This document shows, piece by piece, positions 3,409-50,890 of a DNA stretch of 64,000 bases. Position numbers and translations under genes: made by a program. Position 1 is the stretch's first letter. Every line of letters starts with the position of its first letter. The DNA lies in assembly GCA_964016885.1 (NCBI GenBank), contig OZ024743.1, positions 21,948,001-22,012,000 on the forward strand, given 5' to 3'. The stretch is from Eledone cirrhosa. Taxonomy: Eukaryota. The notes beneath the pieces are model-generated. The model searched no databases. It saw only the letters and a list, made by a program, of their open reading frames with translations, and was not told the origin of the DNA.

Positions 3409-3561
3409 TTCATTATTTCTGAAGACGGCATATGTATGTGTTGGTATGTATATTCTATTTGATAGTTTGTATAATTTTGTATAATTTTGTACATAGATCT
3501 TTTGAATATGCATGCCAATTCTAACACATATATGTCCTAGAAACGATCGTTAAATAATGAA
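3409..3561 (+). ncRNA. Type I hammerhead ribozyme motif
   Basis: Stem I TTCATTATTT/AAATAATGAA (10 bp); core CTGAAGA; long stem II GGCATATGTATGTGTTGG/CTAACACATATATGTCC; GAAAC-GATC-GT palindromic stem III; GUU site. Confidence 0.75.
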
Positions 3562-3849
3562 CTTTTTTTGTTTAATATAAGGAACTGTTTCATTGTTTTA
3601 TTCATTATTTTTTTAATATTTTATATATATATATATATATATATATATATATATATATATATATATATATATATATATTCCGTCTAACTACCTCCAGTCT
3701 AATAATTCTCTGGTGAAAATTGACATATTTTATGTTAGAAAGAAAGAAAAACAAATTGAAAATTTTTTAATAATTTCTTATTTTACTTAAATGTAAATAG
3801 ATTTAAATTTAGATATATTTTATCTTGGTAATGTGTAATGTTACTCGAT

Positions 3850-4098
3850 AGAGTGCATGGCTCGGAGATGAGAGAACCGCTTCAGGTAAAGCCGCCACTT
3901 TTCCAAATTGAAAGATCATATCTCAGATACGATGGACTGATTTTACGGGCAAAACCAACCGGCATGAACCCTCAGGTAGACACTGAACAAGATGGATTAC
4001 ATCCATGAGCTCGGCTGGTCTCGCTCGAGGACCCAGGCAGATTCATGACCCTCATACGACCTTCCTTGGAAGAAGAAGAAGAAGAAGAAGAAGAAGAA
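3850..4098 (+). mobile_element. RTE (Expander/Rex3-like) LINE 3' fragment with (GAA)n tail
   Basis: Degenerate translation RVHGSEMREPLQVKPPLFQIERSYLRY...AKPTG...DYIHELGWSR followed by (GAA)n. Confidence 0.6.
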
Positions 4099-5669
4099 TA
4101 TTCATAATTATTTGACGTAAATGAAAATAGGTTCAAATAAGTAATTTTATTAAAAAAATGTGAAATTGTTTTTGGTCTGCCAGTACGAGCTAAATTTATA
4201 GAACATGCAGGACGGAGTTCAGATTTCATTTTATTTTTAAACCTATTTTTCTATCTTTAGCGACAATTGTAAATGCTGACTTTAAACTCGTGGTAATATC
4301 ATTTAAAACTTTATTTTTAAAACTAATCTTTCTCATTTTTTGAAAAAATTATAAAAGTACATTTTTGCCCTCCAACCGAAGATTGAAAGCCTATTCCAAT
4401 CTACATATATAAATAAATATACTCATAAGACAACTTCCATGTTATCAATTTTTTTTTAAATGGATATATTTAAACATATTTTAATATTTGAAAAATATGT
4501 AAAAAGGTTTAAATATGTAATTGAATTAACATTTTTCAAGCTTTTTGGTCTATTTTTGTATTTAAACCTAGAGAACAATCTAGATGGGTTTGAAGTTTCT
4601 CATTGGTTTTTAAAACTTTTCCCACCTAGATCTAGCGGTAAATATATATGCCCGATATGTACAAGTGGTAACATCTCTACAGATAGGGCACATACACAAA
4701 GACGCACGCACTCTTTACAATTAGAAGTCCAACATACACACATATATACCAAAGGCAGTAAACTATCGCTCTAAATACTTAATATAGGAAAGTATGTCTG
4801 TTGATGTCAAAAGTCCACCAGATTTATTGTTTTTACTGTACAAAATACAGTACGTGAGCATTATATGAAATTTTAAAATCATAACAGGAAATAGGATATT
4901 TTTACTTCCTTGTTGGCAGTGTAGTTGAAGAGTACATTCGGGGACCAGATAGCACCGAATCACACGGTAATTTGCCTGTACTCTTCTGGTCCTCATTATT
5001 GAGGGTCTGTGACCATGGACAATCTATATGTCCACGATTCTTATGGGGAAAAAAGTAACATTGGTGGGTCCCAAATCCTCGCTCGACCATTACTCGGGAG
5101 CTGGCTACCAATTCGCAGCTCATCAGCCTTCATCATAAGTTACTAAGGAGTCCCACCTACCCCACTTTTGAAATTAGAGTAATCCTTTTCCTAGATATAG
5201 TGCCAATCAAGGCTCTGTCTACTCGCATTGGATGGCCACTGACTCTCCTGAGTTACTCCACTTTTTAATGTATTTTTTTGTTCATCCTGCACGGTGTCCA
5301 AAAATACCCATCCTTATCAAGCAAGCTTGATGGGTTGCCGATTTCGTTGCCGACGACCGGACCATGCAACAGGTTATACTGCGAAAAATAAAATAAAAAA
5401 ATAAAAATTCCATATTTTAATAAAAATACTTATTTAAACGTATTTTATTTACGACCTGGTCCTATTATCGAGATAATATTAAAAAACGAGCTCTTTAAAA
5501 TAAAAATACTTGAAACACAATCTCCGATTTATATTCTCCGAACACATAGATGCACTCACACTATCCACATGAGAACCACCAGGTTAATAGTTCTACTATT
5601 AAAATTGATATACTTAAACCTATTTGATTGTTTGACTTAAATGAAAAAAGTTTGAAATATATATATCTA

Positions 5670-47800: not shown

Positions 47801-50137
47801 GAGTGCTAACGGATTCTAAATTATCTGAAAGTTGATTTGGTGGATCTTTGTCAATACGGAAGGGATTGAATTGGCAGAATCTTGGAGCGTTGGATTAAAA
47901 ATGCCTCGGTATTTGGCCCGGCTTACTGCACTTAGCCTTCAAATTCTGCCATGGTCACTTTTACCTTTCACCCATTCGAGGTTGATCGGTAAAGTACCAG
48001 TACAGTACTGAGTACTGGGATTGTTTCTTTCCTCCCTCTCTCTTTCTCCCCCCCCCCCCTCTCTCTCTCTCTCGAAGAAATCTGCTATGTTCTGACCTGG
48101 AGAATGGATAGCCTGCACCAGGTATAAAATGACCCAAATGTGTCGTGGGTCAGGGCGGTGCCTCTACACTACATTAACCGTACCATGCCTTTTCAATGCA
48201 GAATTCAAAGTTTCCCAAGTATCACCGGGGCCGCGGGGAGGCCAACGCATGGACCCCCATTTGCTTATAATAGAGAGGGATGGAGAAAACGAAAGAGACG
48301 GAGGCAATGGTTATGTGACACTGTGGCCCTCACGGGAAAATGATTGACTCACTGTTCAGCATGTATGTAGAATTAACATGAGTGATTAAAAAAGAAACTA
48401 TTCAAATATGTTGTTTTTGTAGTTTTTGTTGTTTAGCACCAGATCAGCTCTTATGGGGATTGTTGTTTATCAGGTACTGCATTGTTTAATACATCCTTTT
48501 ACTTAAAATTTAGCTGTTGTGTCTTGCAGATAGAGTGACTGCGTAGATGCCACCGAGGGCAACAGATTGGCAGTATCGGTAAAGGGTCAGACGCCATGCT
48601 TTGCAACAGAGTTACGGCCCTTTATGATCTGAGTTGAAATCCCGCCGAGGTTAAGTTTGCCTTTCATTCTTATGAGGATCGATAAAATAAAGTACCAGTC
48701 ACGCACTGGGGTCGATTTAATCGACTTTCTCTTCCCCTAAAATTGCTGGCCTTGTGCCTATATAAGAAACCATTAAGATATCAAAAGTTCATTCATTTTT
48801 GTCACTGCAAACCAGTTTTTATAATTTCAGGAAGAAATGTCATGTTTTGAAGTCCATACAATTCATTTTAAAACTGGGACAAGATTATAGATGCAGTTCA
48901 CCGGAAACTTATCTTTTGATCCAGGAAACTGGCTACACTGTGTATGTTAAAGTGTATTGATAAGATATTGAGTGGAAAATAATCATAGAAGCTATATAAT
49001 TTTCTATAAATGTGTTGGTTAATTGATGTGACTTCTATGGAAACCAAAATGACTATCTATGTGTTTCACTTTCGCTCTATCGAACAAATAGGCGACGAAT
49101 TAATTATCAGAATCGCTAGAGCGTAGAAAAATGCTTTGAAAATAATTTCGTTTAGCAGAAAGTAATGATTGGATTATAATAAGAATAATGATAACAAAAA
49201 CAGCAACAATAATGTTAATAATAATGATTTCTGATTGAGGCACAAGGCCAGCAATTTCAAGTGGAGGAGAAAGTCGATTAAATTTACCCCAATGCGGGAC
49301 TGGTACTTCATTTTATCGACCCCGTAAGAATGAAAGGCAAAACTAACCTCGGTGGGATTTGAACTCAGACCGTAAAGGACCGTAACTCTATGCTGCAAAG
49401 CATATTGTCCGACGCTCTACCGATACTGCTAATCCAATAATAATAATTTCTACTATAGGCACAAGGCCAGCAATTGGGGGAGGGGAGTCGATTAAATCGA
49501 CCCCAGTGCATTACTGGTACTTCCTTTTATCGACCCCGAGAAGATGAAAGGCAAAGCTAGCCTCTGTGGAATTTGAACTCAGAACGTAAAGGGCCGTAAC
49601 AATATACCGCATAGTATGTTGTCCGACGCTTTACCCATACTGCCAAGTCACACAATTAAAGCAGAAATCATTATCACCCAACTAAATTCTTCTACAGAAC
49701 ATGACATTTATTAACCAACATGTTCATAATGCCCACTTGAACATATAACTTGTTGTCTTGAGCTCTCGGACGAGACATGGAGTCAAGCAATTCACAAAGC
49801 AACATCCATACATATAATAAAGATTATATAATAATTATAACAATAACTAGAAAAGGTGTCAGAGAATAACAAAGCAACCAAGACCTTGGATATACCACTA
49901 TACACAGACAAGGAGATCATAGCCAACTGACCGGATATTATTGTAAAAAACTGGATTGGCAGATCAGTAGAGGGTCGGACACCATGCTTCGCAGCACAGA
50001 GTTACGGCCCTTTATTATCTGAGTTCAAATCTCGCTGAGGTTAACTTTGCCTTTCATCCTTACGGAGTCGATAAAATAAAGTACCAGTAATGCACTGAGG
50101 TAATTGCTGGTCTTGTGCCAAATGTAGAAACAATTAT
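44885..50137. mobile_element. SINE-dense interval (~10 copies, both strands)
   Basis: Copies at ~44885(-), 45050(+), 46240(-), 46615(-), 46860(+), 47865(+), 48560(+), 49225(-), 49440(-) and 49950(+). Confidence 0.8.
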
Positions 50138-50165
50138 TGTCAAAGACCAGAAAGAAAAAAAATGT
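49846..50165 (+). pseudogene. R4/Dong-like REL-domain fragment interrupted by a SINE
   Basis: EKVSENNKAT..DIPLYTDKEIIAN*PDIIVK[SINE]DQKEKK; ATTATTGT is duplicated around the SINE. Confidence 0.65.
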
Positions 50166-50854
50166 CAATAAAAGTACACACACACACACATGATGAAGGA
50201 CTAATTTTATTCATATGTAACCCATGTGCAACCACGCAGCACTCCATTTTTCTTATATTTATATTTTTTCCTCAGCTGCGATTGTCTGTTTCTTTCTTAC
50301 TGCTTCCCCTCTCTCTGTATCTCTCACCTTCTTTTTACCCCCTCTGCCAGTCACACTCTCTCTCAGCTGGCCTCTTCCTCACACTTCCACTCACTCACTC
50401 TCTGCTTCTCCCCCTCTCTCACTTCCTCCCGTTTGACCTGTGTGAAATCCTTTTCTCGCTCACATCTCACCCATGTCGGATGGTCTGTATCTCTCGTCCA
50501 TGATTTCACCAAGCTTAAGCTTATAGATATCATGTACTTGTCTCTTCCTATCTTTCCGTTGCAATACCATCTTTGTTTGTTTACATGTCTCGCTCGCTTC
50601 GTGCTATTTTACTTGTCCCAATAACTTTATTTAGTTATTGCTCGCACCAACCAGAGGTATATGATTTTTAAAGCGATGAAATACCAATGAAGGTTGGAAG
50701 ATCACTGATGAAAGACTAATTTTATTCATATATATATATATATATAAATACGTACGTGTGTTCTTTCTCCCCCATTTTTTCTTCACCCCCCCCCCCCCCC
50801 GTTCCTTTCTTTCATCATTCTTTACTTTCTATTTATCTTCTATTTCTAACTCTA

Positions 50855-50890
50855 TCTTGTGATGAATGACTAGTGTCCGAAAAGTTAAGA
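50855..50890 (+). ncRNA. Degenerate minimal hammerhead motif
   Basis: TCTT-GTGATGA-ATGAC-TAGT-GTCC-GAAAAGTT-AAGA; core and stem III substitutions. Confidence 0.35.

Follow-up and report, generated by a model that had tools for sequence, protein, structure and literature searches.

A bulged hairpin behind fixed internal end sites, a candidate start signal shared by Hydra-type Penelope-like elements and hammerhead retrozymes in Eledone cirrhosa

Introduction

Penelope-like elements (PLEs) are the closest relatives of telomerase. We analysed a stretch of 64,000 nucleotides from the Eledone cirrhosa genome (GenBank assembly GCA_964016885.1, contig OZ024743.1, positions 21,948,001 to 22,012,000 of the forward strand; "the window", with positions counted from its first letter), in which PLE ends and short non-coding retrozymes both carry type I hammerhead ribozymes. 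An original prediction, made from the letters of this stretch, had grouped about 15 such motifs as a dispersed set of small (TA)n-targeting, PLE-linked elements. Families are named here by the start of a window hammerhead or by their unit length, and loci elsewhere in the genome by L numbers.

The closest described coding relatives are the C-terminal endonuclease-positive (EN+) PLEs of the Hydra clade, including Hydra-1_Obim (Craig et al. 2021, PMC8557442). The elements described here share with them the motifs RW[KR], DKT, CxCX5C and CxxC..E, a canonical hammerhead, the preference for (TA)n, and the inverted 5'-truncated copy plus tail that has been described as a PLE signature, whereas the units here measure 3.76 kb, the tails 60-150 nt (30-40 nt in the published elements), and the families are many. 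The minimal hammerheads of PLEs (Cervera and de la Pena 2014, PMC4209133), which occur in thousands per genome, likewise have an extra base before stem II, a palindromic stem III and opposite-strand pairs 100-700 bp apart. The motifs at 34108 and 50855 are of this type, whereas most others here have longer stems I and II, and those at 37713 and 36218 an extended stem III.

Metazoan retrozymes without long terminal repeats (Cervera and de la Pena 2020, PMC7229834; Li, Clavereau and Pollet 2026, bioRxiv 10.64898/2026.07.22.740005) resemble the non-coding elements of the window in their tandem units with one type I hammerhead each, a GC content below 50%, their dispersal and the PLEs found alongside. 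Their published link to PLEs consists of co-occurrence and similarity to pseudo-long terminal repeats (pLTRs); here it consists of a two-site, two-arm footprint and a shared cis-element without alignable homology, both read from DNA sequence. For the Poseidon element PAc of the green anole (Frangieh et al. 2024, PMC11167929), the tail has been explained in vitro by two internal starts of reverse transcription; both target strands are cut and extended, and sequence 3' of the starts is needed, features in which we liken PAc to the present elements. PAc starts inside an AC-rich stem-loop within its open reading frame (ORF), with no homology to the target. Unlike in PAc, the ends described here are located upstream of the ATG (~+187) and coincide in part with TA letters, and a defined bulged hairpin comes after them. 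Hammerheads, their link to PLEs, the (TA)n preference, retrozymes and an octopus Hydra family are thus already known in kind, and the present analysis adds a candidate start signal common to autonomous and non-coding elements.

Results

Within each family, PLE ends and retrozymes alike stop in (TA)n at one of two fixed sites, here called A and B, often as two arms placed head to head, which corresponds to the PLE signature of two fixed internal start sites and an inverted 5'-truncated arm. In the 483-nt retrozyme family, the ends were mapped in the first 18 position-ordered loci on contig 1 (of 30 loci fetched, 19 were run and one of these was removed as a duplicate) with a query pattern that spans the cut site and by selection yields at least one cut-crossing arm per locus. 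All 26 arms end in (TA)n, 16 of them at unit position 80 and 10 at 183-196, and six of the seven two-arm insertions combine A with B. The 468-nt family gave the same picture (22 of 25 loci run), with 33 of 34 arms ending at 152-155 or 236-237 and A plus B in 11 of 12 two-arm loci, while the ends of the coding 39529 family lie at +48-51 and +139, with 32 outward and no inward pairs among the first 100 matches listed. The mapping was noisy in the 431-nt family because its unit contains a TA tract of its own. End sites overlap 2-7 TA-type template letters, so that the start site, unlike that of PAc, does share homology with the cut DNA.

The hairpin found behind these sites consists of a lower stem of 4 bp (RYUC/GARY), a bulge on the 3' side (U or, mostly, U-N) and a variable upper stem. 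It begins 1-17 nt behind site A in 18 of the 23 clusters with two classes of end (shuffles gave 0-4% for each, the genome background 1.3%), and the distance is 5-10 nt in 15 of these 18. Of nine clusters that had not been inspected before the descriptor was written, six proved positive, including one with a relationship to an inspected family. In the 3.76-kb Hydra unit, the sense strand carries the hairpin exactly twice, at +56 and +146; the antisense strand has two matches, one of which is the reverse of the +56 hairpin. Among the retrozymes, it follows site A in the 483-, 468-, 578- and 528-nt units and is complete behind site B in the 468- and 578-nt units. Three of the four retrozymes of the window have it, the 431-nt family being the one without, and the hairpin would tie these three to Hydra elements. 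By eye, it is also present in exact form in three of six published Hydra consensi, namely Hydra-2_Amil (coral), Hydra-2_Ajap and Hydra-1_Ajap (sea cucumber; twice in the last). Both the two fixed end sites and the adjoining hairpin had been overlooked in the original prediction. A literature search found no paper on the hairpin, although subscription journals, Repbase notes and preprint supplements might hold more, and the words hairpin, stem-loop and bulge are absent from the main text of PMC8557442. As a side observation, TATCG follows all three hairpin-less sites (431-nt site B; 10784 sites A and B), which might point to a partner for the 431- and 467-nt families.

The elements at 7755, 31356, 36218 and 37713 are non-coding tandem retrozymes with units of 431-578 nt. 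Head-to-tail arrays with one type I hammerhead per unit were found for the 483-, 468- and 431-nt families, and the 578-nt unit is known only from partial tandems of up to ~1.5 units. The longest Met frames in the units are 25-75 aa and the GC content is 35-39%. Units differ by 0-4 letters within an array and by 6-63 between arrays, and at L263 both arms carry the same private 485-nt variant. This uniformity fits repeated copying of one monomer and would also be compatible with a long linear parent. Two further tandem retrozyme families were seen at L186 (528-nt unit, with hairpin) and L182 (467-nt unit, without hairpin, similar to the 431-nt family).

Within the window, the 483-nt insertion spans 7685..8248, its minus arm ending at unit position 80 and its plus arm at ~190, both in (TA)n; the hammerhead lies at 7755..7838 (-; predicted cut after 7760) and the hairpin behind site A at 8140..8175 (+). 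This family has 1129 exact matches and arrays of up to 10 units. A second, very short two-arm insertion of it, again ending at 80 and 190, stands just left of the window (L021 8674-8880). The 431-nt insertion (31087..31689; hammerhead 31356-31398, -) lacks the hairpin behind its ends. In the ~578-nt insertion (35885..36497; hammerhead 36218-36317, +), the inverted arm has a hairpin at 35901-35933 (-) and is joined directly to a Neptune-like endonuclease at 35885. The 468-nt retrozyme (37472..38012, +) comprises 1.2 units, with the hammerhead at 37713-37792 and hairpins at 37479-37502, 37559-37577 and 37944-37967.

The remaining motifs belong in large part to coding elements: five sites are 5'-truncated ends of coding PLEs, three of them Hydra-type, and a sixth, 13718, is probably another. 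The window motifs are not one non-coding system; about half are truncated PLEs. Of the small TA-bounded blocks in the original prediction, the (TA)n bounds were confirmed, whereas several blocks are really 5'-truncated ends of 3-4 kb coding elements. A non-coding nature was demonstrated for 7755, 31356, 36218 and 37713 only; the motifs at 10784, 39529 and 39946, with their mirrors, seem non-coding within the window yet mark 3' ends of coding PLEs. The link to PLEs, the (TA)n targeting, the many families and the PLE-type insertion of the non-coding families were borne out.

Two head-to-head arms of the 3.76-kb coding Hydra PLE occupy 38069..39726, with hammerheads at 38110-38175 (-) and 39529-39594 (+) and a hairpin at 39643-39662 (+). 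The family has 1999 exact pattern matches genome-wide (control 0). Its copy at L161 (3877-6111) contains an intact Hydra ORF of 745 codons from stop to stop, reverse transcriptase (RT) followed by C-terminal GIY-YIG, with the motifs RWR, DKT, CxCX5C, CxxC..E and YRDD; CxH was read from the C-terminus. A Pfam search of this ORF gave no match, and by eye the protein resembles Hydra-1_Obim. A hammerhead near the 3' end, insertion into (TA)n, and inverted or tandem copies with a tail were all found in the 39529 family, whereas its length departs from the published "generally <3 kb", the tandem spacing being 3745-3779 nt in five of six same-strand neighbours. These motifs point to the Hydra clade for this family and, by similarity, for the 39946 and 3409 families. 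The second coding Hydra PLE is represented by two head-to-head 3' ends at 39818..40184 (hammerheads 39946-40016, -, and 40081-40143, +; hairpin 39877-39901, -), and in its family a Hydra frame lies ~1.1 kb upstream in three of four long loci. A TA-flanked piece of 225 nt at 37183-37409 has a 3' end like end B of the 39946 family and a hairpin match at 37256-37282 (-); diverged relatives of it were seen at L120, L134, L146 and L243.

The third Hydra-type element begins with an inverted arm at 1..572 (-) that continues beyond the window; the arm matches 2209-3614 at 93% over 1463 nt, and the mirror hammerhead and a longer tail lie in L021. [quoted passage not shown] Its match to Pfam GIY-YIG (E 0.007) is below the cut-off, while it shares 41% identity over 137 aa with the full Hydra ORF of L161 (E 6e-35). 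Downstream of this fragment stands the hammerhead at 3409..3561 (+), with a 10-bp stem I, a palindromic stem III and a predicted cut after 3551; the arm ends at 3621 in (TA)28. A complex TA/CA microsatellite of 600 nt (2187-2790) lies within the Hydra 3' untranslated region (UTR) and was copied along with the element, as seen in the mirror arm and a similar copy in L165. Early labels of Nematis for 698-1204 and Hydra for 10784 were reversed on the clade definition of PMC8557442.

The coding PLE at 10461..10977 is represented by two 3' ends placed head to head, with hammerheads at 10670-10712 (-) and 10784-10826 (+) and no bulged hairpin. This family appears to have a CX4CxxC linker and a CCHH-type endonuclease ~200 nt ahead of the hammerhead (putative Neptune/Nematis type). 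The 3' end at 13665..14180 (-; hammerhead 13718-13802) is assigned as probably Hydra-type; at L088, a member of its family, a same-strand Hydra-like frame lies ~1 kb upstream with no TA tract between. A 5'-truncated Neptune-like PLE extends over 34019..35885 (-), with the C-terminal part of the endonuclease at 35662-35885, a long 3' UTR and the hammerhead at ~34108-34141; it matches L259 at 94% over 1916 nt, and a Neptune-like endonuclease precedes this hammerhead in three of six long loci as well. For the 10784 and 34108 families, the CX2-5CxxC linker and CCHH endonuclease were read from fragments only (L163, L164 and window 35662-35885).

The hammerhead motifs in the window are real. A descriptor consisting of CUGANGA, GAAA, NUH and three stems, which tolerated an extra base or mismatch at the base of stem II, found 13 type I hammerheads at a score of at least 10 (3409, 7755, 10670, 10784, 13718, 31356, 36218, 37004, 37713, 38110, 39529, 39946 and 40081), whereas 100 local dinucleotide shuffles yielded 0.09 on average and never more than 2. 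A stricter descriptor left 5 motifs against 0.13 in shuffles. Most sites originally named are among the 13, while 13586 scores 9.7 and 34108, a minimal hammerhead, was missed because its stem I has only 2 bp; it is 99-100% conserved in 40 scored copies of 1684 candidates. A match at 19843 (score 4.8) is a chance hit of the descriptor. Core, three stems and ends in stem I identify the motifs as type I, with deviations at 34108, 31872, 40682 and 50855. The last three had been called degenerate or variant copies, correctly so: 31872 and 50855 are decayed and 40682 carries U4C. All three named mirrors (of 10784, 39529 and 39946) were found, and a fourth, of 3409, was predicted and then located immediately beyond the left edge of the window (L021 9165-9337). 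The five sequences named for the palindromic stem III were likewise confirmed. A perfect stem III palindrome occurs in 20 of 53 clusters. Most window motifs have a stem I of 4-10 bp and a long stem II and are not of the minimal type.

That pairing is kept while stems differ in sequence agrees with the covariation seen in two sets. Among 15 Hydra-lineage hammerheads, 8 of 20 pairs are altered on both sides, a score reached by 0 of 500 shuffles, and in a second family (6 sequences) a single stem II pair occurs as AU, UA, CG and GC; this is support rather than proof, because the aligned rows were taken from descriptor hits. When 12 motifs were folded alone, 37713 was the only one whose minimum-energy monomer had the full three-stem form, which fits dimer cleavage for motifs with a palindromic stem III. 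The Rfam scan of the window contained no hammerhead family among the best 150 of 190 matches; these were microsatellite-driven microRNA models only.

In a genome sample of 40 arbitrary 10-kb stretches (assembly 3.0 Gb), 49 motifs were counted, against 0.6 in shuffles and 0 in reversed sequence, which is 1.2 per 10 kb (bootstrap 0.78-1.7). The window, with 2.0 per 10 kb, is therefore ordinary for its genome. Extrapolated to the whole genome, the sample corresponds to about 370,000 hammerheads, or roughly one every 8 kb. The 15-letter pattern of one lineage has 93,708 exact genome-wide matches (control 344), and since this lineage makes up 12 of the 49 sample motifs, it scales to ~383,000 hammerheads. 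TA tracts lie at most 320 nt downstream of 42 of the 49 motifs (27% background), and 46 sample matches fell into 22 clusters (Chao1 48). A much higher figure is reportedly known for Schistosoma, and we therefore claim no density record. Published counts, obtained with differing methods, are 126,247 for axolotl, more than 6000 for coral and ~5000 for mussel (PMC7229834), and 235 Rfam hammerhead matches for giant squid (PMC6962438). As to whether such diversity had been described, one Octopus bimaculoides Hydra PLE with hammerhead and (TA)n preference is in print (supplement of PMC8557442).

Several stubs and decayed copies complete the set. A short two-arm stub at 13514..13652 carries the hammerhead 13586-13621 (+) and belongs to a family with a hairpin behind end A; a decayed two-arm stub at 31756..31945, in which core positions C3 and G12 are changed, is related to it. 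The 3' stubs at 36906..37108 (-; hammerhead 37004-37071) and 40682..40776 (+) also come from families with hairpin, and the U4C variant of the latter recurs in three of five other copies seen. At 50855..50890 (+) lies a decayed minimal hammerhead of an abundant older family with 3446 first-look candidates; CUGA occurs in four of seven other cores printed, canonical cores included. Parent elements of 37004, 13586, 40682, 31872 and 50855 were looked for and not found. A TA-flanked stub at 8265-8376 (-) holds only a tail with its bulged hairpin (8321-8339), both belonging to a hammerhead family known from other loci. A duplicated short element with strong fold-back (10996-11133 and 11215-11360) has hairpin matches at 11057-11081 and 11269-11293 and adjoins an RT C-terminal fragment (11317-11760).

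Other repeats in the window include three broken copies of long interspersed nuclear element (LINE) type at 19879-28323 and 59340-63860 (-), with apurinic (AP) endonuclease, RT, zf-RVT and a lineage-specific ORF1, which we take to be Tx1/L1-like. An abundant repeat resembling a short interspersed nuclear element (SINE), presumably octopus-type, is present in 10-17 dispersed copies between 5734 and 56952; insertions of it were also seen within hammerhead-element tails (L052, L058, L091, L097).

Discussion

The motifs and their families, the two end classes, the head-to-head arms, the (TA)n flanks and the position of the hairpin can be read directly from the DNA. The account of them that we consider probable is that a Hydra-type PLE enzyme copies both PLE ends and retrozymes by way of the shared bulged RNA hairpin, with reverse transcription starting a few bases upstream. 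The hairpin would then likely position reverse transcription and mark Hydra enzymes as the mobilisers. The Hydra protein would bind the hairpins, the PLE endonuclease would cut both strands in (TA)n, and each DNA end would prime 5-12 nt 5' of one hairpin, where the template is UA-rich, giving one arm at A and the other at B. The two complementary DNA (cDNA) strands may halt at variable points and then be joined head to head. For retrozyme arms longer than one unit, the template would have been a multimer left uncut or a circle closed by ligation, and the near-identical arrays of 9-10 units would fit rolling-circle copying. The hammerhead would cut multimers to monomers, mostly as dimers via the palindromic stem III and in the case of 37713 possibly as a monomer, and such monomers may circularise. 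The families without hairpin (431-nt, 467-nt and the 10784 PLE) likely rely on the signal of another PLE clade.

A number of observations weigh against this account. A BLAST comparison of the retrozyme units with 8 PLE ends gave no alignable homology (best E 0.03). Five of the 23 clusters (the 431- and 467-nt retrozymes, the 10784 PLE and two more) lack the hairpin despite two end classes, the lower stem behind site B has just 3 bp in the 483- and 528-nt units, the short hairpins at 39529 site B and 37004 site A fold without the bulge, five hairpins have z weaker than -1.3, and the other three of the six published Hydra consensi contain near-matches only. The covariation that speaks for the hairpin (in 17 aligned examples, both sides change at 4 of 6 pairs, and 0 of 500 shuffles equalled them in cells paired and covariation score) comes from a test that is partly circular, because the descriptor was derived from these sequences and the 17 examples were picked for pairing. 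The 5' ends of the 483-nt arms are scattered, with 3 of 26 near the cut site and ~3 expected by chance; a pile-up there in a first sample was due to query bias and was gone in the position-ordered sample. Hammerhead cleavage of the anole PLE was dispensable for insertion in vitro (PMC11167929). Finally, direct fusions without a TA tract join retrozymes to PLE frames at 6 of 90 retrozyme loci and to an RTE-type frame at one, and the PLE fusions ignore the hairpin split: the 578-nt family has two fusions to Hydra and two to hairpin-less types, and one fusion to Hydra was seen in the 431-nt family, which itself lacks the hairpin. Since they span three PLE types in this way, they indicate opportunity for template jumps or nesting rather than specificity.

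The same fusions, with partners from three PLE types and one RTE-type LINE, would be expected if retrozymes were copied by any available PLE or LINE enzyme through template jumping, with no clade-specific signal, and both L168 and the window show no retrozyme remainder beyond the fused PLE. We give this hardly any credence, as most insertions have no fused partner and use two sites only, and nested insertion at (TA)n hot spots used in common, followed by deletion, can produce fusions as well. It is also very unlikely, in our judgement, that the short tandem families are PLE-derived satellites spread mainly at the DNA level, by unequal crossover or segmental copying, with hammerheads and hairpins as inherited remnants. 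Local tandem amplification has indeed been proposed, and cleavage was found in just one of nine frog elements (bioRxiv 10.64898/2026.07.22.740005); however, the copies here lie scattered among unrelated flanks, their 3' ends are fixed and their 5' ends vary, their inverted arms share the private variant of the array, and they are 98-99% identical.

More serious, though still rather improbable, is a choice of the start solely by UA-rich microhomology to the cut (TA)n, in which case the nearby hairpin would serve packaging, a promoter or recognition by the endonuclease at the DNA level. The TA-type letters overlapped by each end site are in keeping with it, in D. virilis the endonuclease depended on the tail for recognition at the DNA level (cited in PMC11167929), and two ends are also present in families without the hairpin. 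Yet many other TA-rich sites of the units go unused, in most positive clusters the hairpin keeps its narrow distance behind site A, it occurs in duplicate where the ends do, and a one-sided bulge with covarying stems fits RNA. For these reasons we prefer the hairpin as the element that positions the RT.

In a broader form, the hairpin, conserved from coral and sea cucumber to octopus, would be the start signal of Hydra RTs, its two copies would make twin priming the normal course, and circular retrozyme RNAs would parasitise Hydra elements by this signal alone, in a genome whose ~370,000 hammerheads lie above the published counts compared here; as a whole, we hold this to be an even bet. The finding bears on how PLEs choose internal start sites and on which enzyme mobilises animal retrozymes. 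With a hairpin of 20-40 nt at a fixed distance from the ends, present in an element with an intact Hydra ORF and in very young retrozymes, both questions become testable by the published in vitro assay. Moreover, with one hammerhead per ~8 kb and dozens of families, this genome is a rich source of natural hammerhead variants.

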